Shown here piece after piece: positions 14,752 to 59,085 of a stretch of DNA of 64,000 nucleotides. Every line of letters begins with the position of its first letter. The first letter of the stretch is position 1. The translations under genes and the position numbers were made by a program. A model generated the notes under the pieces. It did not search any database, was not told the DNA's origin, and saw nothing but the letters and a program-made list of their open reading frames with translations. Source of the DNA: an uncultured Bacilli bacterium. GTDB taxonomy: Bacteria > Bacillota_I > Bacilli_A > RFN20 > CAG-826. The stretch covers positions 5,680 to 69,679 of the forward strand of contig CAJOLV010000003.1 of NCBI GenBank assembly GCA_905235515.1, given 5' to 3'.

Positions 14752-15075
14752 ATTCGATCCTGTAAGCCATGTTTTGTCTAGGATAATTATTTATCTAAGC
14801 TATGCTTATTGGTCTCCATTCAATTCTTTTGACCAATCTCCCCTACCAAATTTGGGTTTCTCGCTTGTGGGGTTTACCGCGTTCCACCTTTATGTTTCCA
14901 TAAAGCTACGTCACTGTGGCACTTTCAGAATTTCCACCATGGTTACCTTTAGGTGGTCCTTCGCCGTCACGCACTCCTACGTGCCTAGCGTTATTAGTTC
15001 CGCTAGCGCAATCACTACAAGCATCTCAGCTTGTGCGAGCATGGACTTTCCTCTACTAAATAGCAGCAATTATCC
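14752..15075 (-). ncRNA. rnpB: RNase P RNA, bacterial type B
   Basis: The minus strand reads AGAGGAAAGUCCAUGCUCGCACAAGCUGAGAUGCUUGUAGUG (CR-I/P4). It also carries GAAAGUGCCACAGUGACG...GGUGGAACGCGGUAAACCCCACAAGCGAGAAACC (CR-II/III region) and ACAUGGCUUACAGGAUCGAA (CR-V). All three align closely with B. subtilis rnpB. P1 forms from CUUCGAUC (5') and GAUCGAA (3'). The segment is locally GC-enriched and non-coding, and rnpB lies next to gpsB as in B. subtilis. Ends are accurate to about +/-5 nt. Confidence 0.9.
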
Positions 15076-15090
15076 AGATCGAAGTTTTAA

Positions 15091-22569: not shown

Positions 22570-22712
22570 AAATAAAAGCCCTTTCCCAGGGCATAAAACA
22601 TTTTAACTTCTTTCATCCAGACTATACTGTCGCCACTTGAATTTCACAAGTTCCTGCTCTACCGAGCTCGCGGGGTTTACCGCCGGTCACGATTTACGTT
22701 GCCCTGAAGTTA
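22570..22712 (-). promoter_or_regulatory. FMN riboswitch (RFN element) with terminator-type expression platform
   Basis: The minus strand reads CUUCAGGGCAACG...GACCGGCGGUAAACCCCGCGAGC...GGCGACAGUAUAGUCUGGAUGAAAGAAG. This matches the RFN consensus GGGCAGGGUGAAAUUCCCGACCGGCGGUA...AGCCCG...GACAGUGAAAGUCUGGAUGGGAGAAGG. It is followed by the hairpin GCCCUGGGAAAGGGC + UUUUAUUUUU immediately before the ribU ATG. Confidence 0.85.
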
Positions 22713-22755
22713 TATACATTATAGAATTATTTTCACATAGTTCCATATTTATTTA

Positions 22756-52240: not shown

Positions 52241-53293
52241 TTAATTCTTTTTCCAGTAGTAACTAACACCATTAGTGTTACCAACCTTCTCAATTAATCC
52301 TTCCTTAAGAAGTCTAGATAATTCTAATTCAATGGTGCTATAGGAAATATCGGGCCAAAAATTATGGATTTCTTCTTTGGTAATTTTACCAAGAGTTTGC
52401 TTTATAGTTTCCTCAACTCTTTCGGCTTTAGAAAGCTTCTTGTCCTTAATAATGATATAGCGGCCAGCCAGTTCATTATATGTGGACAAAAGCATAAGTA
52501 AGAAATTTTCTATAAAAGGCCAATAAGAGTTTTGATTATCTGCCCATCCAGTAGATGATTCATAAAGTTTTTGATAATATGCTCCTTTGTTTTTGTTAAT
52601 CATATATTCCAAAGAAACATATTTGCCCACATCATATCCACTTTTATAAAGAAGTAACAAAGAAATTAATCTAGACATTCTTCCGTTTCCGTCTTCAAAT
52701 GGGTGAATACATAAAAAATCTAAAACAAAACACGGAATTAATAATAGAGGATTGATGTTGGAATTTTGTCTCGCTTCAAAGAAAGCTAATATCATTTGCT
52801 CCATTGATTCTGGAGTTTCTATCGCATTGACTGGTATATATCTTATAGATCTACTGCCATCAGGATTCTTTTGAGCAATAACATTATCAACTTGTTTCCA
52901 ACTTCCTCTAGTTGATGTCTGAGCGTGTTCCAAAAGAATTCTATGTAGCAACAATAATTGTCTTGCATCGACATCCATTGTCATGTATTCATTATGAATT
53001 CTTTCTAAAGCGTCCCTATAACCGGCAATTTCTTTTTCGTTGTGGTTTAAAGGCTCAGTATCTTTATTAACAATGCTTTCTATTCTTTTATCAGTGGTAA
53101 CAATACCTTCAATGGCATTACTGGCCTTAACAGATTGAATTTTAGCAATCTTCACTAAATTGATAAAAACCTTAGGATAATTTGTTTTAAAAGTATCAGA
53201 AAGGTTTTTGTTTCTTTCAATTGCAAATAAATATGAGGCTATATTTGATGGGATAGCTTCTTTTTCCAAAAACGAATAATCGTATTTTCTCAT
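52241..53293 (-). CDS. Fic-family protein (AMPylator-type) with N-terminal inhibitory motif and C-terminal winged helix
   Basis: 350 aa. Fic motif HPFEDGNGRMSRL, an inhibitory-helix-like SNAIEG upstream, and a C-terminal wHTH-like region (LIEKVGNTNGVSYY). Confidence 0.9.
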   Translation of the reverse strand: MRKYDYSFLEKEAIPSNIASYLFAIERNKNLSDTFKTNYPKVFINLVKIAKIQSVKASNAIEGIVTTDKRIESIVNKDTEPLNHNEKEIAGYRDALERIHNEYMTMDVDARQLLLLHRILLEHAQTSTRGSWKQVDNVIAQKNPDGSRSIRYIPVNAIETPESMEQMILAFFEARQNSNINPLLLIPCFVLDFLCIHPFEDGNGRMSRLISLLLLYKSGYDVGKYVSLEYMINKNKGAYYQKLYESSTGWADNQNSYWPFIENFLLMLLSTYNELAGRYIIIKDKKLSKAERVEETIKQTLGKITKEEIHNFWPDISYSTIELELSRLLKEGLIEKVGNTNGVSYYWKKN

Positions 53294-53422
53294 AGCAAGG
53301 CTCCTATCTGCATAAAATATATAGCATTTTAGTTAAATAATCAATCAATAAGTGGATATATTTGCCTAATTTGACGCTGTTTTTAGTTAAATAAAAGCAC
53401 CAAGCTCTACCACATTAATTTT

Positions 53423-53698
53423 TTGTCATTTTTTAACGCTAAATTAAATGTGACAAAATTAATAACATTAATCATCTTCACATTAACATGCTGGGGGGCA
53501 CCATTATGTATTCAAATACCATTTCTAATTATTGATTTATTGTTAGAGAAAAAGGCTATCAAAGTAATAGTTAAAATAATCTTTGTAATAATATCTTTGA
53601 TTCTTTTCTTTTTGGTTCCTAGTTCAATAAGAGTTTCAATAGCTTTATTCTTTCTTCAACTGCTAATTGAATATCTTGTTTCTGATAAATTTAGCTAA
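53423..53698 (+). CDS. Hypothetical small hydrophobic protein (doubtful)
   Basis: 91-aa ORF that is almost entirely hydrophobic and AT-rich. No RBS or domain. Could be an AT-rich artefact. Confidence 0.2.
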   Translation: MSFFNAKLNVTKLITLIIFTLTCWGAPLCIQIPFLIIDLLLEKKAIKVIVKIIFVIISLILFFLVPSSIRVSIALFFLQLLIEYLVSDKFS

Positions 53699-53812
53699 TT
53701 TATTTATTCAATTGTAAATACCAAATTTATAGATGTCTTTAACGTACTGTAACAATCCCTAATTTTTCAAAATGCAAAAATATTCATACTGTAACAATCC
53801 CAATTAGAGGTG

Positions 53813-53879
53813 TGTTAAACATATATCTATATTATTCTATAATATAGTGTGTTAAGTTTTAGATACGCTGATAATAGTA
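53813..53879. repeat. Copy A of a repeated ~67-bp promoter/operator-like element containing a perfect 9-bp inverted repeat CTATATTAT-tct-ATAATATAG
   Basis: GTTAAAC-ATATAT-CTATATTAT-TCT-ATAATATAG-TGTGTTAAGTTTTAGATACGCTGATAATAGTA is about 80% identical to copy B at 56954-57020. It carries a -35-like TTAAAC and a -10-like TATAAT. Confidence 0.6.
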
Positions 53880-54035
53880 AGAAAAAATGCCTTTAGATTA
53901 AAAGCTGGCACGACTATATTAATCCAAATGGTATAAATGCGAGTAAAATTGCGCTTGATTGTGAAAAAGATTATTAACCGACTATAATAATCCCGTATAA
54001 AAACAGAATAATTTCGGTGTGCCTAGAAAAGATTA

Positions 54036-54770
54036 TTATTTAAATGCGTTCTTATCAAATGTTATCAATTTATATCCGTGAATTTGAAAATAAAAATCGT
54101 TAACATAGTTTTTAATCCATTCAACCTTTGAAATTGAACTTTCATTATGATTGTCATGGGCTAAGATGGCAGAATTTATGATATTATTAGCAACTCTATT
54201 TTTTAACGCTTTTCGAATCTTTTCATTAAAGAAGAATAGCGGATTTACACACACGGATGAATCTGAGTCTTTAAAAAACGGTTTATCAAATTGCCTTGTA
54301 GGCATGGATTCGATATCAATATTTTCTAAAACATTTTTATCAATAATTGTTCTAGGGTATATAGCCACTTTGGATTCAAGCTCATAAGCTCTAATTAACG
54401 ATTCACCTAAAACTATTTCAGAATCAATATGAAGCAACCCTTTAACGATTGCACCACGAACAAGTAATTCATAAACTGATAAACATTCTACAGCAAAACC
54501 AGCAGCAACATTAAAAAGCGAATTGAGTGATTCGGTTGGATTATCACCATTAATTTTCACAGCAAATAAAAAATTATCTGAAAAAGATCTAATAATCACA
54601 TCTTTTGAACGATGTTTTTTTATAAAATTGCTGACAAGCCAAAGCTTAGAAAAAGTGCTTTTTTCATCTTTTTTTAAGCTTGCCTTTGTACCCAAGGCAT
54701 CAAAATATGCAACGTAATACTCTTCACACGTCAATTCTTTATCTGGTAAGCCGTTGATAATCAAGCTCAT
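54036..54770 (-). CDS. Hypothetical protein (244 aa), third gene of the AbiEi-like/ATPase operon, with weak class-III nucleotidyl-cyclase-like sequence features
   Basis: Translationally coupled to the upstream ATPase. Segments YFDALGTKA and, about 40 aa later, IRSFSDNFLFAV resemble the two metal-binding Asp strands of cyclase/palm domains. VLGESLIRAYELES resembles the cyclase signature VWGDTVNLASRMES, but the key N and R are not conserved. No confident family assignment. Confidence 0.5.
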   Translation of the reverse strand: MSLIINGLPDKELTCEEYYVAYFDALGTKASLKKDEKSTFSKLWLVSNFIKKHRSKDVIIRSFSDNFLFAVKINGDNPTESLNSLFNVAAGFAVECLSVYELLVRGAIVKGLLHIDSEIVLGESLIRAYELESKVAIYPRTIIDKNVLENIDIESMPTRQFDKPFFKDSDSSVCVNPLFFFNEKIRKALKNRVANNIINSAILAHDNHNESSISKVEWIKNYVNDFYFQIHGYKLITFDKNAFK

Positions 54771-56011
54771 TAGTTAAACCGCCTATTCTCTTCCATGAAC
54801 TTCATTAAGTTTGCATGTATAATTCCGTTTCTCTTTTGGATTAAGAAATCTGTAGTCAATACATACTTAGGAAAATTATCTTGAATCTTTTCTAAAGGAG
54901 CATACTCTCTATTTTCTGTATCTTCACTGCTTAAGATAGTATATGCAACTTGAACATAAGAATAATTTAAGAATAAGTCTTTCAAGATAAAATCACATTC
55001 TAATGCGCCAATTCTACCAACTGATACATCATAGTTCTTAGATTTGGCATAAAGATATGCAACATTTTCCAGTGCGGGTCCGTAGTTAATTTTGCTATTT
55101 GGATTTGTAAATTGTGCAAACGATAAGTCGGCTAGATAGTATTTCTTTTCATTTTGAAACATCTTTCTGGACTTCATATCGAATCTGCCACATTCATAAA
55201 TAATCTTGGCATCAATCAGATGTTGAATATACTTCGCTACTGTGCGGAATTGGATGGCAATGCCATTCTTGTTTAAATCTTTAACAATGTTATTAATGCT
55301 GGTTGTGGCTCCATAATTATTAATGATGTAATCTCTAACCAAATTAAAGACTTCGACATTCTTGATTTTTACTCGCTTCTTAATGTCTTTCTTAAAGATT
55401 TCGTCCACTATTTCACTAATGTATACTTTTTTAGCGGCGATATCAGGTAAGAACAGTGTTCTTGGAAAACCGCCTTCAACAATATAGTGTTCTAATTCAA
55501 TAGAAAGATTTCCGTCCACTGGCATCTTGTAGAATTTTTTCATGTCTAAGTATTCGTAGAAATTAAGAGGAAAAACCTCAAATTCAAGATATCGTCCAGT
55601 AAGATGCGTCATCAATTCTCCGCTGAGAAGATAGGAATTGCTACCAGTTATGAAAATTGAATAATCTTCTTCAGCTCTAAATGCATTTATCATTCTCTCG
55701 AAATCTTTAACATTTTGAATCTCATCAATAAATAAATACTTAGTGCCTTTTATTCCTTTGGATAATTTATCAATCAATTCTTCAAGAGCATCCGGAGTTT
55801 TAATCTTTGTATATCCTCTTTTATCTAAATCAATATAAATAATATTGTTAGGATTCACTCCACCTTCAACTATTTCCTCACTTATCATTTGCATGATGGA
55901 AGATTTTCCGGATCTACGAACACCAGTAATAACTTTAATTAAATCATTTTCATGGTAAAAAGGTCTGATTCTAGATAAATAATTTTCTCTTTTGTAAAGC
56001 TTCTTTTTCAT
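54770..56011 (-). CDS. COG1373-type AAA+ ATPase (AAA_14 domain + C-terminal DUF4143)
   Basis: Walker A GVRRSGKSS about 35 aa from the ATG at 56011 and Walker B LFIDEIQ. The C-terminal region has the DUF4143 length and pattern. The ORF-track start at 56065 adds 18 aa with no RBS. Confidence 0.8.
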   Translation of the reverse strand: MKKKLYKRENYLSRIRPFYHENDLIKVITGVRRSGKSSIMQMISEEIVEGGVNPNNIIYIDLDKRGYTKIKTPDALEELIDKLSKGIKGTKYLFIDEIQNVKDFERMINAFRAEEDYSIFITGSNSYLLSGELMTHLTGRYLEFEVFPLNFYEYLDMKKFYKMPVDGNLSIELEHYIVEGGFPRTLFLPDIAAKKVYISEIVDEIFKKDIKKRVKIKNVEVFNLVRDYIINNYGATTSINNIVKDLNKNGIAIQFRTVAKYIQHLIDAKIIYECGRFDMKSRKMFQNEKKYYLADLSFAQFTNPNSKINYGPALENVAYLYAKSKNYDVSVGRIGALECDFILKDLFLNYSYVQVAYTILSSEDTENREYAPLEKIQDNFPKYVLTTDFLIQKRNGIIHANLMKFMEENRRFN

Positions 56012-56118
56012 ATTTTCTGACTCTATATTATCTATTTTTCTAGTTAAATGCAAGTTATCGCACAATAATTTACAATATTTTAAGATTTTAGTGCCATAAC
56101 CGCCATTTATCTCACATT

Positions 56119-56745
56119 TTATAGTCCTAACAGCAGATTGTGGATATTATTTTCGATTCCTAAATTATCTAGTACGGTCTTCAATCTAACAAATGTTATC
56201 TGATTGTATTCGGCTAAAAGATGTGTCGTAATATATTCATCTTTATATCCTTTGGCGAGTTCATTTAAAACTTCGATATTCTCTAAGCATTCAATCTTTG
56301 TTTGTTGGCTTAATATTTCAAGAAGCTCTCTAAAGGATCTATTGTCTTTAGTTATCATTGTTTTAGTTGGAATAATCTTGTTATTGCCAATAGCCTTATT
56401 CCTTTTTACATAGCACTTAATCTCAACGCAACTAGGCGCATCTTCTATTAATCTATATTTATATAATAAGGATAGGCCTGATAGCATTCCGTAGTTATTA
56501 TCAACATAGAAATCTACCATTGCTTTTTGAATATCTTCTTCAGTTGGATTCTTGCCAATATAATAAACACCTTTACCAATCTGGGTCATTTTAAGAACAG
56601 CGTTAGCTCTAGTGAGATATTGCCTAAAAGAATCGAAATCATTTGTTTGAAAATAGTGGGTAGCTAAAATCTCCACATCAAATATGGTGTTCTGATGTGT
56701 TCTCCCATAATTAATAATTTGTTGTACGATAGATAAATTTTCCAT
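56119..56745 (-). CDS. AbiEi-family-like regulator/antitoxin (winged HTH)
   Basis: 208 aa. RANAVLKMTQIGKGVYYIG (the xGVY motif of the AbiEi N-domain) and YGMLSGLSLLYKYRLIED (the GxLSGxSA...GL-like motif). First gene of an operon with the AAA ATPase. Confidence 0.5.
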   Translation of the reverse strand: MENLSIVQQIINYGRTHQNTIFDVEILATHYFQTNDFDSFRQYLTRANAVLKMTQIGKGVYYIGKNPTEEDIQKAMVDFYVDNNYGMLSGLSLLYKYRLIEDAPSCVEIKCYVKRNKAIGNNKIIPTKTMITKDNRSFRELLEILSQQTKIECLENIEVLNELAKGYKDEYITTHLLAEYNQITFVRLKTVLDNLGIENNIHNLLLGL

Positions 56746-56953
56746 ACACCTATATTATATATAAATGCAATTGCGAGACAAGTTAAAATATCAAAAATTA
56801 CTTGATACTTTACTTTATATATTTTATATATAATAATGAGTATATCAAAATACTACTGTCTCGCAAGTCCCCATTGTCTTTCACCGGCTGTATAAATACC
56901 AATTTTATAAATGAATAAAAAGTTTTCGACTATAATAACACCATCAAAAAGCA

Positions 56954-57020
56954 TGTTAAATCTATATACTATATTATAAATAATATAGTGCGTTAATCTC
57001 AAGATACACTGATAATAGTA
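56954..57020. repeat. Copy B of the ~67-bp palindromic promoter/operator-like element (CTATATTAT-aa-ATAATATAG)
   Basis: GTTAAATCTATATA-CTATATTAT-AA-ATAATATAG-TGCGTTAATCTCAAGATACACTGATAATAGTA. Lies about 210 bp upstream of the AbiEi-like gene start. The minus-strand reading gives -35 TTGAGA, an 18-nt spacer and -10 TATAAT. Confidence 0.6.
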
Positions 57021-57248
57021 GCCTTCTTCAAACTGCAATATGCTGTTTTTAATAAGTGTTTCACTTTCAACAGTATTTGATTTGCAAAAAAGTTATCAAT
57101 ATAATACTAGTCCATAAAAAAGAAGTGTTAATTAAACTAATAATCTCATTTCTATTTTCAATTTGAGACTTTTTAAGATGATTAGATAATTGGCTTTCAA
57201 ATAATGAATCTAAATCGTTTGACATTCTTTTTTATTATATAAACTCAA

Positions 57249-58349
57249 TTAAAATGATCCAAATTTCGGATTCTTTCTAGCATTCATGTATGCGCATTTT
57301 CTTAATTCACTATATAGTTCCTTATCTTGAAGCGCTAATTGAATTTTTTGTTTATATTTGCCAAAAAAACAGGTTGAATCAAGTATCTCAACTGAGCCAA
57401 TATCGTTATTGAACAATATTTTGGTCGCCAAAACATAAACTTTTGTTGCCATTTTAATGAGCGCTTCACTAGAAACACTTCCGCCTAAAACATAGGCATT
57501 AAAACCATTTAATCCTTGCATTAAAATTTTATATTCATCTTTTGGACCAAACTCACCATAATCAATAATGTTTGAACAAGTCAAAATCGTGTCTTCCAAA
57601 CAATCTTCGACTTTATTGACATTCTTATAATAAGGGATCGAATTAGTTATTAATTTACGATATGTTTTAGAAATTAATTCAAAATCAGTTGAATAATCGA
57701 GAAGAGTAGAAACATCATATAACTGTTTAATTATCTCAATATGTTTTGGTCTTTCATCTTTATAATAGTCGGTGAATTTAATACCAGATGTATGAGGGGC
57801 AAATGCCACTAATTTGTCGCCAATTAATTCATCAACGGTTGGTAAATTAACTTTATAAAACGGCTCTTCAAAAACAAATAACTCATTATCTATATTTTTA
57901 ATTTGAACAACAGAATAAGTATTGTCTTCAAAAACAATATCTAGCAAAACAAAAGACTCCTCAACTTCTTCGTCGATTATGGATTCATAATTAAACTGAA
58001 AATGGGCTTTGTCTACACCTGGTTTTGGTGGTCTTATTTGTTCATTAATTTCGCTAAAGAAATCAGACTTAATGTTTTTAATTTTGTTGATAATTTCTTC
58101 TTTTTTGCTATTTGGACACAAAATGTCTATATCAATAGATAGACGATTCAACTTATTCAAGAGAAGCAAAATCGAAGTGCCGCCTTTAAAAATAAAATCG
58201 ATCTCGTTTTCCACTAGTGTTTCCAAAACTTTAAAAGCATATGCAAGTTTCTCTAAATGTTCATTACTTACATTTTGAGTTTTGGCTATTTTATTTATTC
58301 TTTCTTTGTCGAAGTTTTTATTGCTAATCATATCGTATTGCCCTCTCAA
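57249..58349 (-). CDS. AbiEii/AbiGii-family nucleotidyltransferase (type IV TA toxin)
   Basis: 366 aa. The FIFKGGTSILLLL...RLSIDIDIL pattern matches the AbiEii GGT(S/A)L and RxSxDxD motifs. Overlaps the upstream partner by 26 nt. Confidence 0.8.
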   Translation of the reverse strand: MRGQYDMISNKNFDKERINKIAKTQNVSNEHLEKLAYAFKVLETLVENEIDFIFKGGTSILLLLNKLNRLSIDIDILCPNSKKEEIINKIKNIKSDFFSEINEQIRPPKPGVDKAHFQFNYESIIDEEVEESFVLLDIVFEDNTYSVVQIKNIDNELFVFEEPFYKVNLPTVDELIGDKLVAFAPHTSGIKFTDYYKDERPKHIEIIKQLYDVSTLLDYSTDFELISKTYRKLITNSIPYYKNVNKVEDCLEDTILTCSNIIDYGEFGPKDEYKILMQGLNGFNAYVLGGSVSSEALIKMATKVYVLATKILFNNDIGSVEILDSTCFFGKYKQKIQLALQDKELYSELRKCAYMNARKNPKFGSF

Positions 58350-59085
58350 ATTCTGGGTTTGCTTTTTTCAATGTTGATAAAACTTTTTGTTGTCTATTTC
58401 TTTTGGTGGCATAACGAAGAAGGGTAGAATAATTGATGGAATACCGTTTGATTAGTTCGGAGTAAATATGTGGTATCTCATTAGATAACATTTCATCCAA
58501 AAAAGAATCTGAAACAATATCCACCATCATTTTTTCCAATTTAGGCTGCGTTAATCTAGGGCCTTCTTCTTTCTTTTTGCACCTGTAAATGGGTGCATCT
58601 TCATTAAAATTTTTCACTACATAAATCGTTCTATCTGTATTGTATTTTGAAAAAGTTTTCAAATCTTTATAGAAAACCGCAGAAATTCCTTTTTCTTTTA
58701 ATTTATTAATCACATGTTCTGTTGCAAACTTCTGGCACTCAAAGATAACGAAGTTCTTATTCGGAATCAAATGCGAGTATTTTGAAATCCAAGACGAATC
58801 CCAAACAGAAACATCATAATCAATAACATCTCCTTCAAAATAAAAGAAATATTTATCCAACATCTTTTTTTTGAAAGAAGGAAGAATGTTATTAATTTTG
58901 TATTTGTTAAAACTATATTTGGAGATAATGTTGTCTTTGCAAAGCTCATCCACAACCATATAAATCTCGTGTTGTTCCTTTATTTTCATTTGTGACGAAA
59001 CAATCTTAAAAAGTTCATCTTTGGCGATGAAGTCACTTTTTTTGGCTTTCTCTTCAATAATTACAATCAATTTCCTATTTTTCAT
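58324..59085 (-). CDS. AbiEi-like antitoxin / transcriptional regulator partner of AbiEii
   Basis: 253-aa gene immediately upstream of, and overlapping, the AbiEii NTase gene (the canonical AbiEi-AbiEii arrangement). Assignment is mainly positional; sequence similarity to AbiEi is weak. Confidence 0.5.
   Translation of the reverse strand: MKNRKLIVIIEEKAKKSDFIAKDELFKIVSSQMKIKEQHEIYMVVDELCKDNIISKYSFNKYKINNILPSFKKKMLDKYFFYFEGDVIDYDVSVWDSSWISKYSHLIPNKNFVIFECQKFATEHVINKLKEKGISAVFYKDLKTFSKYNTDRTIYVVKNFNEDAPIYRCKKKEEGPRLTQPKLEKMMVDIVSDSFLDEMLSNEIPHIYSELIKRYSINYSTLLRYATKRNRQQKVLSTLKKANPEFERAIRYD

Follow-up and report, generated by a model that had tools for sequence, protein, structure and literature searches.

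The defence island and its two repeat copies

The DNA stretch analysed here (the window; 64,000 nt of contig CAJOLV010000003.1 of an uncultured Bacilli bacterium, all coordinates being given as window positions) harbours a defence island whose genes are all encoded on the minus strand, and within this island two copies of a palindrome-containing repeat are found. As reasoned below, the repeat probably represents a non-coding 3' module that is conserved within a family of small cassettes of defence genes. Read in the direction of its genes, the island comprises an AbiH gene (cut by the window end), a methyltransferase gene, the genes of a DGQHR protein and of a 429-aa protein and an AbiE system (57249-59085), consisting of a DUF6577-type AbiEi gene (58324-59085) and an AbiEii gene (57249-58331), which is closed by the repeat copy termed B. 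Copy B is followed by a leader promoter region (56746-56874), a leader gene encoding a 208-aa AbiEi-like protein (56119-56745), an ATPase gene of the AAA_14 and DUF4143 type (54770-56011; 413 aa from the ATG), a gene for a 244-aa protein (54036-54770), the second repeat copy, termed A, 440 nt of non-coding sequence and a SoFic-type Fic gene.

The leader protein was assigned by the PADLOC AbiEi model (E 1.7e-15, residues 15-206), while neither Pfam nor NCBIfam gave a match for it and a sequence search of the PDB returned nothing. Its AlphaFold2 model possesses an N-terminal winged helix-turn-helix (wHTH) with predicted local distance difference test (pLDDT) values of 70-83, the remainder being poorly modelled (overall pLDDT 58). 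A cognate AbiEii nucleotidyltransferase gene does not follow immediately downstream; instead, the leader is followed by the ATPase (Pfam AAA_14, E 1.9e-34; PADLOC PDC-S01, a candidate defence family, E 2.8e-131) and by the 244-aa protein, which has no family match and is a defence candidate by association.

The earlier note on this DNA had described the repeat as an element of about 67 bp located at 53813-53879 and 56954-57020, and both copies were confirmed. The palindrome reads CTATATTAT-TCT-ATAATATAG in copy A (53827-53847) and CTATATTAT-AA-ATAATATAG in copy B (56969-56988). The copies point in the same direction, i.e., they are direct repeats, and are oriented as the minus-strand genes; the left edge of copy B is located 209 nt from the start of the 208-aa gene, in line with the distance of about 210 bp given before. 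The flank AGATACRCTGATAATAGTA occurs exactly twice in the 64 kb as compared to 0.05 occurrences by chance when up to three mismatches are allowed. The 67-bp element is real but does not represent the full extent of the repeat, which is a module of roughly 270 bases: the segments 53734-53879 and 56875-57020 align over 146 nt with 70% identity (blastn E about 1e-17), beyond this core a weaker similarity between A and B reaches to about 54001 and about 57150, and the profile of the whole family covers 53732-54001 (E 1.5e-66) and 56871-57150 (E 9e-42). With this whole-family profile no third copy was found in the 64-kb window; a degenerate third copy closing the upstream AbiE unit was sought by profile in the window and not found either, nor was a left boundary of the preceding AbiE unit.

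On the gene strand the module is composed of three segments, termed ext, part 1 and part 2, in that order. In copy A (minus strand), ext is the cargo-linked arm (53880-54001), which lies directly past the stop codon of the 244-aa gene, contains the motif M1 together with a short hairpin (53969-53994) and the motif M2 (53911-53928), and is conserved with the comparative loci L021, L022, L025 and L026. Part 1 (53804-53879), corresponding to the 67-bp element, reads TACTATTATCAGCGTATC ... TTAACACACTATATTAT-AGA-ATAATATAG ... TTTAACAC, and part 2 (53734-53803; profile E 7e-16) carries the direct motifs M3 (53785-53803) and M4 (53734-53759; GGGATTGTTACAGTACGTTAAAGACA) and forms the right-hand cassette boundary. 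Copy B, on the same strand, consists of a divergent ext (57021-57150), which aligns weakly to that of A, part 1 with the palindrome (56945-57020) and part 2 (56875-56944) with the M4 variant GGTATTTATACAGCCGGTGAAAGACA; this part 2 closes the preceding cassette, and the window cassette starts after it with ATGGGGACTTGCGAG, the first base of which is the first base of near-identity between cassette copies. The window cassette spans 53734-56874 (3141 nt), with copy A belonging to it and copy B belonging to the AbiE unit upstream. An att-like nature of the repeats, marking an inserted cassette of 3.1 kb, had been considered earlier as an alternative; the cassette is found (3.14 kb), but its junction is located at the end of part 2 (AAAGACA), about 70-100 nt from the 67-bp element.

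Two open reading frames (ORFs) lie across copy B. A 52-aa ORF (57067-57225), which is called in public assemblies, overlaps its ext arm, has no family match and is probably not a gene. A 33-aa ORF (56853-56954) was rejected as coding, its start codon having no counterpart in copy A (ACACC vs ACATG).

Anatomy of the module family

A profile search identified about 50 related copies across some 37 stretches from metagenomes or metagenome-assembled genomes (MAGs), two of which are labelled Erysipelotrichaceae, and all copies are oriented with their neighbouring genes. Within a genome collection holding one genome per species, the 208-aa protein matches only two loci, both being uncultured rumen Erysipelotrichaceae MAGs, and a metagenome scan with the part-2 pattern yielded 29 further loci. 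Three pattern scans of viral contigs yielded chance-level local matches or nothing, and no similarity to the module was found in plasmid and phage collections. The comparison of the loci established the anatomy of the module, the grammar of the arrays, the exact boundaries and the occurrence of the same cassette in different contexts.

Across the family, the module has a total length of about 270 nt and its sequence is conserved to 60-99%. Its ext of about 114 nt holds two GGGATTNTTAYAGTC motifs, i.e., M1 at its start (GGGATTATTATAGTCGG then TTAATAATC) and M2 further in (TTTGGATTGATATAGTCGG), and family comparison revealed that ext sequences cluster by the upstream cargo. Part 1 comprises 76 nt (ACTATTATCAGTGTATC ... 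ATTAACACACTATATTATT(0-3 nt)AATAATATAGTATATA.G.TTAACAC) and part 2 comprises 70 nt, with M3 (TTGGGATTATTACAGTCGGAAT) and M4 (AGGGATTACTACAGTACGTTAAAGACA); it ends sharply in GTTAAAGACA, homology stopping abruptly after M4. The palindrome is retained by a symmetric double change in the copy L040_4702 (ATTATG/CATAAT), and a third half-site-like copy, ACTATTATCAG, lies ahead of it at a distance of about 31 nt. Several copies have a GC-rich hairpin and a subsequent T-run in front of M1 (e.g., GGCCGCCATTAATGGTGGCCTTTTTT in L059 and L040_4702), which places the module probably outside of the cargo transcript.

No Rfam match was obtained in 53600-57300 at E<=1; elsewhere in the window, only a class B RNase P RNA (14758-15081, minus strand, 288.9 bits), which points to Bacillota, and an FMN riboswitch (22601-22715, minus strand, 91.5 bits) were found. 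Consensus folding of 12 non-redundant copies on both strands gave no conserved RNA or single-strand structure beyond the palindrome of 9-14 bp. A long-range helix of TTTAACGTACT with AGGTGTGTTAA was considered and rejected, as no compensatory change was found and the helix is broken in two copies.

Two variations of the module were observed next to this common form. In L041 (620-675), L045 (2656-2711) and the right copy of L059 (reverse complement), M3 and M4 are fused to one motif via a deletion of about 42 nt between direct repeats, which shows that recombination or slippage takes place between the motifs. Furthermore, another conserved 3' arm, about 95 nt long (...GATATTAGGCTGAAYCCATC..AACTATTTGAAATAGCTYAAAAG), is located directly before part 2 and after single leaderless defence genes (including DUF4238, an HNH-like 310-aa protein and SAVED+AGS_C) in L023 (7830-7880), L029, L039, L041, L045, L048, L050, L051 and L059, and suggests a second cassette class built on the same part-2 core.

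Cassette composition and arrays

Cassettes are 2.3-5.5 kb in size and, given in minus-strand order, consist of a promoter region of 129 nt, the AbiEi-like leader (208 or 215 aa), one to four variable defence genes, in some cassettes a terminator, and finally ext, part 1 and part 2. The leader is the only gene common to all cassettes of this kind, and leader homologues of 73-92% identity precede unrelated cargo on other metagenome contigs, including AAA_14 with AAA_21, AAA_21 with TIR and SLFN_AlbA_2 with an AEP-TOTE helicase. Over all leader homologues, AAA_14/DUF4143, HATPase_c_3 and Fic cargo was found as well.

Cassettes are arranged head to tail, with tandem arrays present in the window, L025, L040, L042 and L051, and arrays adjoin polysaccharide-synthesis genes (ugd, epimerase, glycosyltransferases). 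At the left end of an array, a bare part 2 precedes the first cassette, while the full module occupies internal and terminal positions. Accordingly arranged left ends, in which part 2 alone is followed by the 129-nt promoter region and the leader, were counted in 10 cases plus L062. Full modules directly behind cargo are internal, with the next leader following, in five instances (window copy B, L025 and L040/L042/L051) and terminal, without a leader after them, in 13 (window copy A and others). Solo part-2 sites with neither part 1 before nor a leader after them are present in L028, L029, L031, L034, L036, L039, L046 and L052 and, with fused M3/M4, in L041 and L045.

Some sequences beside the arrays were recorded in addition. 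Behind solo part-2 sites with three different left contexts, one sequence recurs, TTTGTTTGAAACTCCCCCTATAAATTGGACC... (L028 11411-11505, L029 981-1051, L031 1655-1751), each contig ending within 100 nt; this sequence may represent an element present in several copies or a further type of cassette that was inserted at the AAAGACA boundary. About 325 nt past terminal full copies, ORFs start in L030 (514-1729) and L054 (7403-8618) which resemble IS110-family transposases in their N-terminal sequence; some IS110/IS1111 elements target integron attC sites, a possible parallel. Within the window, the 440 nt between copy A and the SoFic gene (53294-53733) are without a convincing ORF, and the SoFic gene (52241-53293) encodes a protein sharing 50% identity with the Fic protein carried by the L040 cassette with the 215-aa leader, being here without leader and without 3' module. 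The Fic gene together with the 440-nt stretch may represent a decayed cassette; a decayed leader was sought in this gap and not found.

Cassette boundaries and occurrence in different contexts

The cassette with SLFN and helicase cargo was found in L054, L040, L042, L035, L022 and L062, where its neighbours are of at least three kinds on the left and five on the right. Comparison of L054 with L040 revealed, from left to right, 42% identity in the left flank, 69% in the left part 2, 100% in both promoter and leader, 100% in ext and part 1, 99% in the right part 2 and 41% in the right flank. These identity steps define the travelling unit as promoter, leader, cargo, ext, part 1 and part 2, with both junctions lying within AAAGACA(A). 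The same step at AAAGACA is seen between L054 and L022 and between the window and L024, for which part 2 is 64% identical and the promoter region 92%, its first 50 nt reaching 98%. Near-identity begins exactly at AAAGACA|ATGG, although homology extends leftwards into part 2, and terminal copies stop at one same base before at least 10 unrelated flanks.

L059 and L040 share the cassette with the 215-aa leader and Fic cargo at 99.3% identity over 2270 nt, whereas the neighbouring recombinase genes are 82.5% identical in DNA and 64% in protein, which implies that this cassette moved between lineages. The right flank of L059 (GCAACACAAAAAACTTCGATG..., HlyIII) equals that of the solo part 2 in L036/L049; hence, an occupied and an empty version are documented on the same flank. 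In L041, L045 and L052, part 2 is joined into the middle of an epimerase gene, which is truncated at KR|DFTY, the intact gene reading TGTAAAAGA|GAT at this position, with a microhomology of 5 nt. In one Logan assembly (sample ERR3525316), the cassette contig (L004) ends in the last M4 bases of copy A (53735), and a second contig (L056) starts 29 nt earlier (53763) and continues through to the Fic gene; the branching point of the assembly graph thus coincides exactly with the junction proposed here.

Proposed mechanism and candidate recombinase

Judging from these comparisons, cassettes probably move as units by site-specific recombination. According to the suggested mechanism, excision would yield a circle in which the part 2 of the cassette is placed beside its own promoter region. 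This part 2/promoter junction would then recombine with a resident part 2, whereby the crossover is expected inside AAAGACA(A), at copy A putatively at 53734-53740, and the cassette would be inserted downstream of the resident site, leaving a full module at its 3' end. Repeated insertion would build up arrays, while recombination between two part-2 copies would delete cassettes and leave solo sites; M1-M4 and the palindrome might serve as accessory sites to which the recombinase, the leader protein or a host factor binds. For the window cassette, the mechanism predicts a circle junction in which GGGATTGTTACAGTACGTTAAAGACA of copy A is joined to ATGGGGACTTGCGAGACAG (...GGGATTGTTACAGTACGTTAAAGACA|ATGGGGACTTGCGAGACAGTAG) and a deletion junction in which ...CCGGTGAAAGACA of copy B is joined to TCTATAAATTTGG (...TATACAGCCGGTGAAAGACA|TCTATAAATTTGGTATTTAC).

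As enzyme, the leading candidate is a large serine recombinase of about 560 aa, which would act in trans on cassettes lacking it, as in the window; this assignment is a possibility that we rate at somewhat below an even chance. Its gene encodes 559-561 aa in L040, L051, L028 and L039 (mutual identity 91-95%, the L039 copy being apparently frameshifted) with the domains Resolvase, Recombinase and Zn_ribbon_recom; it is located at a distance of 0.5-1.6 kb from the first part 2, with its 3' end abutting polysaccharide-synthesis genes. In five loci, the gene is located divergently from the cassettes and upstream of an array or a solo site (L040 166-1851, L051 2421-4100, L028 8727-10409, L039 7712-9400, L059 10001-11686). 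Orthologues of 54-64% identity occupy the same polysaccharide/defence junction, and L059 carries the element family there. A small ORF (about 65 aa) overlaps the recombinase start, and a neighbouring HNH-like gene is reduced to its first 14 or so codons in L028, L039 and L040, with a common break after ...CAAGT. Tyrosine recombinases were searched for by phmmer with IntI1 and XerD probes among all ORFs of 90 aa or more from the window and from L021-L058, with none found at E<=1; L059-L062 were covered by gene calls, which list no Phage_integrase family. The link between recombinase and cassettes is suggestive, not established.

Several observations weigh against cassette movement by site-specific recombination or against this enzyme. 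The comparison is based entirely on loci from metagenome assemblies, in which repeats can cause mis-joins or breaks, and repeated samplings of one arrangement (L040/L042/L051 and L027/L043/L055) leave fewer independent contexts than loci. No recombinase gene is present in the 64-kb window or in the available flanks of most loci, and L060 and L061 carry the orthologous recombinase at the same type of junction with no detectable element. Exact-protein look-ups of the Fic and AbiEii proteins returned the same arrangement only, and hence no isogenic empty site for the window's own locus; no circular junction of its cassette was found. The sequence to the right of terminal copies is not conserved, which is unusual for an attB half-site of a large serine recombinase. 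The palindrome itself is kept while its centre varies by 0-3 nt among copies; this speaks against a crossover at the palindrome and would fit a dyad bound by protein or a small cruciform. Identity between the copies of one locus is only 60-70%, and nothing therefore points to recent activity in this genome; with copies of this age and no recombinase nearby, the window's array may be a fossil.

Alternative explanations

Given the mosaic nature of the cassettes, homologous recombination certainly contributes to their exchange. In its exclusive form, this explanation assumes leader (left) and module (right) to be mere homology arms which flank ordinary recombination events swapping the cargo, with neither a site-specific recombinase nor a circle being involved. 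The conservation of both arms fits this idea (leader and promoter are 75-100% identical across cassettes, the module 60-99%), as do the mosaic cassettes themselves, since the leaders of the window and L024 are about 90% identical and their ATPases about 70-75%, with no similarity between the third genes, and L062 combines a window-like leader with SLFN cargo; the M3/M4 deletion fusions in L041/L045/L059 and the lack of a recombinase in most loci point in the same direction. Homologous exchange would, however, not be expected to produce the sharp onset of near-identity at AAAGACA|ATGG despite homology reaching leftwards into part 2, nor the common terminal base before at least 10 unrelated flanks, the bare part-2 sites and the joining of part 2 into the epimerase gene at only 5 nt of microhomology, and it was therefore judged unlikely as sole explanation. 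Other types of mobile-element ends were rejected: for transposon ends, the copies are direct, target-site duplications are missing and the cassettes hold no transposase; for a dif/Xer site, the crossover is not located at the palindrome; for ends of the IS200/IS605 type, the hairpin lies about 100 nt away from the junction.

AbiEi antitoxins autorepress via inverted repeats in their own promoters, and the earlier note had favoured the palindrome as operator of the AbiEi-like gene, i.e., as the site in part 1 at which the 208-aa protein would autorepress the three-gene operon. This idea is in line with the match of the protein to AbiEi models, with the maintenance of the palindrome as a palindrome and with the half-site-like ACTATTATCAG preceding it by about 31 nt. 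It did not hold up against the family, as ten of the 15 leader genes with an element upstream have part 2 only and hence no palindrome, and 13 of the 18 complete palindrome copies with a visible downstream side are not followed by a leader; the palindrome travels with the upstream cargo and not with the downstream regulator. Moreover, the palindrome of copy B is located 224 nt from the leader start codon (56969 vs 56745), past part 2 and outside of the common 129-nt promoter region, and part 1 is nearly invariant behind cassettes whose leaders share only 42% identity, which renders the operator function very improbable; the leader may bind part 1 for some other purpose. The leader promoter carries another inverted repeat, TTGCGAGACA-N76-TGTCTCGCAA (56857-56866 and 56771-56780), the 10-nt halves of which are conserved in all cassettes with 208-aa and 215-aa leaders, and this repeat is the better operator candidate. 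Covariation of leader type (208 vs 215 aa) with the promoter repeat is uninformative, the promoter being nearly the same in both. Part 1 was also considered as a promoter, reading outward along the strand of the genes (TTAACA-17-TATAGT) towards part 2 and the following cassette or, as suggested in the earlier note, along the plus strand antisense to the 3' end of the upstream cargo, or as a terminator or insulator between cassettes. The plus-strand hexamers described previously are found in copy A (TTAAAC-17-TATAAT), while copy B in fact reads TTAAAT-17-AATAAT and is weak as a plus-strand promoter; hexamers with 17-nt spacing are conserved in the gene-strand family consensus, and TTGAGA-18-TATAAT (11/12) on the gene strand of B, TAAACA-16-TATAAT on the plus strand of A and the hairpin with T-run before M1 (GGCCGCCATTAATGGTGGCCTTTTTT), by which some modules would lie outside of the cargo mRNA, support a role in transcription. 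Promoter-like hexamers are, however, at chance frequency in this AT-rich region (29 vs 27.7 expected in shuffled sequence), those in part 1 are a by-product of the AT-rich palindrome, their spacer length changes by 0-3 nt among copies, and the Rfam and folding results together with the uncompensated loss of the long-range helix speak against a conserved RNA signal. A transcription signal as the function of part 1 was consequently considered improbable, slightly less so than that of an operator; it is compatible with the cassette model.

Comparison with known systems

No description of this cassette family was found in the literature searched. The assembly and exchange of defence islands are poorly understood outside of Proteobacteria (integrons, P2/P4 hotspots) and staphylococci (staphylococcal cassette chromosome, SCC), and the arrays described here suggest an integron-like stockpiling of defence genes in a bacterial group without such a described system. 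Their boundaries are defined by sequence and would allow cargo, including unannotated genes, to be harvested from rumen and digester metagenomes; the proposed recombination reaction has a named core, named substrates and a candidate enzyme, and AbiEi-like proteins may be general leaders of defence cassettes, beyond their antitoxin role. As a tentative and rather doubtful synthesis, an Erysipelotrichaceae 'serine integron' can be envisaged, i.e., a chromosomal platform beside a polysaccharide locus where a large serine recombinase would capture and reshuffle small self-regulated defence cassettes, each tagged by an AbiEi-like leader and a 3' recombination module of about 270 nt with four direct repeats, a palindrome and the AAAGACA core, whereby the leader protein might double as an architectural or directionality factor binding the repeats. 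If true, this would represent a functional analogue of integrons whose components are unrelated to theirs, in a phylum from which integrons are not known; should a large serine recombinase carry out this task at a compact repeated site, it may also be useful as a tool.

With respect to the leader, the closest known system is the AbiE type IV toxin-antitoxin system, in which AbiEi binds inverted repeats in the abiE promoter. The leader described here resembles AbiEi and has an N-terminal wHTH, and its promoter lies between the halves of an inverted repeat; its partner, however, is any of several defence genes (SLFN, Fic, AAA_21, TIR, PDC-S01 ATPase) and not AbiEii, and the palindrome of the 67-bp element lies outside of the conserved promoter. 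Integrase-less accretion arrays are known from the CIMEs (cis-mobilizable elements) next to ICESt1/3 of Streptococcus thermophilus and from the tycheposon satellites of Prochlorococcus. In both, elements without an own recombinase are arranged in tandem at one attachment site with repeated att sequences between them and are mobilised in trans, but tyrosine recombinases are involved, att derives from a tRNA or gene end, and neither a common leader nor a 270-nt 3' module is present.

Staphylococcal SCC and pseudo-SCC composite islands consist of tandem defence cassettes with Ccr att sites which are mobilised in trans by large serine recombinases (PMC11470126). The arrays described here resemble them in the tandem arrangement of cassettes between directly repeated att-type sites and in the defence cargo, and most of the cassettes, lacking a recombinase, would likewise depend on one large serine recombinase nearby. 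They differ in cassette size (2.3-5.5 kb vs 17-68 kb in SCC), in location (beside a polysaccharide-synthesis locus vs rlmH), in the boundary, which is a module of about 270 nt with arm-like repeats as compared to a short Ccr-binding core, and in that every cassette begins with the same AbiEi-like gene; their excision and circularisation are putative, being indicated indirectly by identical cassettes in different flanks, solo sites and the one assembly break at M4.

The attC site of integrons is an imperfect long inverted repeat (R''-L''...L'-R') which folds as a single-stranded hairpin and is poorly conserved in sequence between cassettes. The module described here, in contrast, is 60-99% conserved, is composed of four direct repeats and a 22-nt palindrome over about 270 nt and does not form a folded imperfect hairpin. 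Further differences are that no IntI-type tyrosine recombinase was found and that cassettes of the present family possess their own promoter, a conserved regulator-like leader and often several genes, the host being a Bacillota lineage. Sedentary chromosomal integrons are described in a preprint as storing defence systems (bioRxiv 10.1101/2024.07.02.601686). The present arrays share with integrons the small, co-oriented cassettes in tandem, the recombination module at each 3' end and the boundary at a short conserved core; moreover, their first site lacks a cassette-type arm and is in this respect comparable to attI, the cargo is largely anti-phage, and in some loci the recombinase gene is located divergently beside the array.

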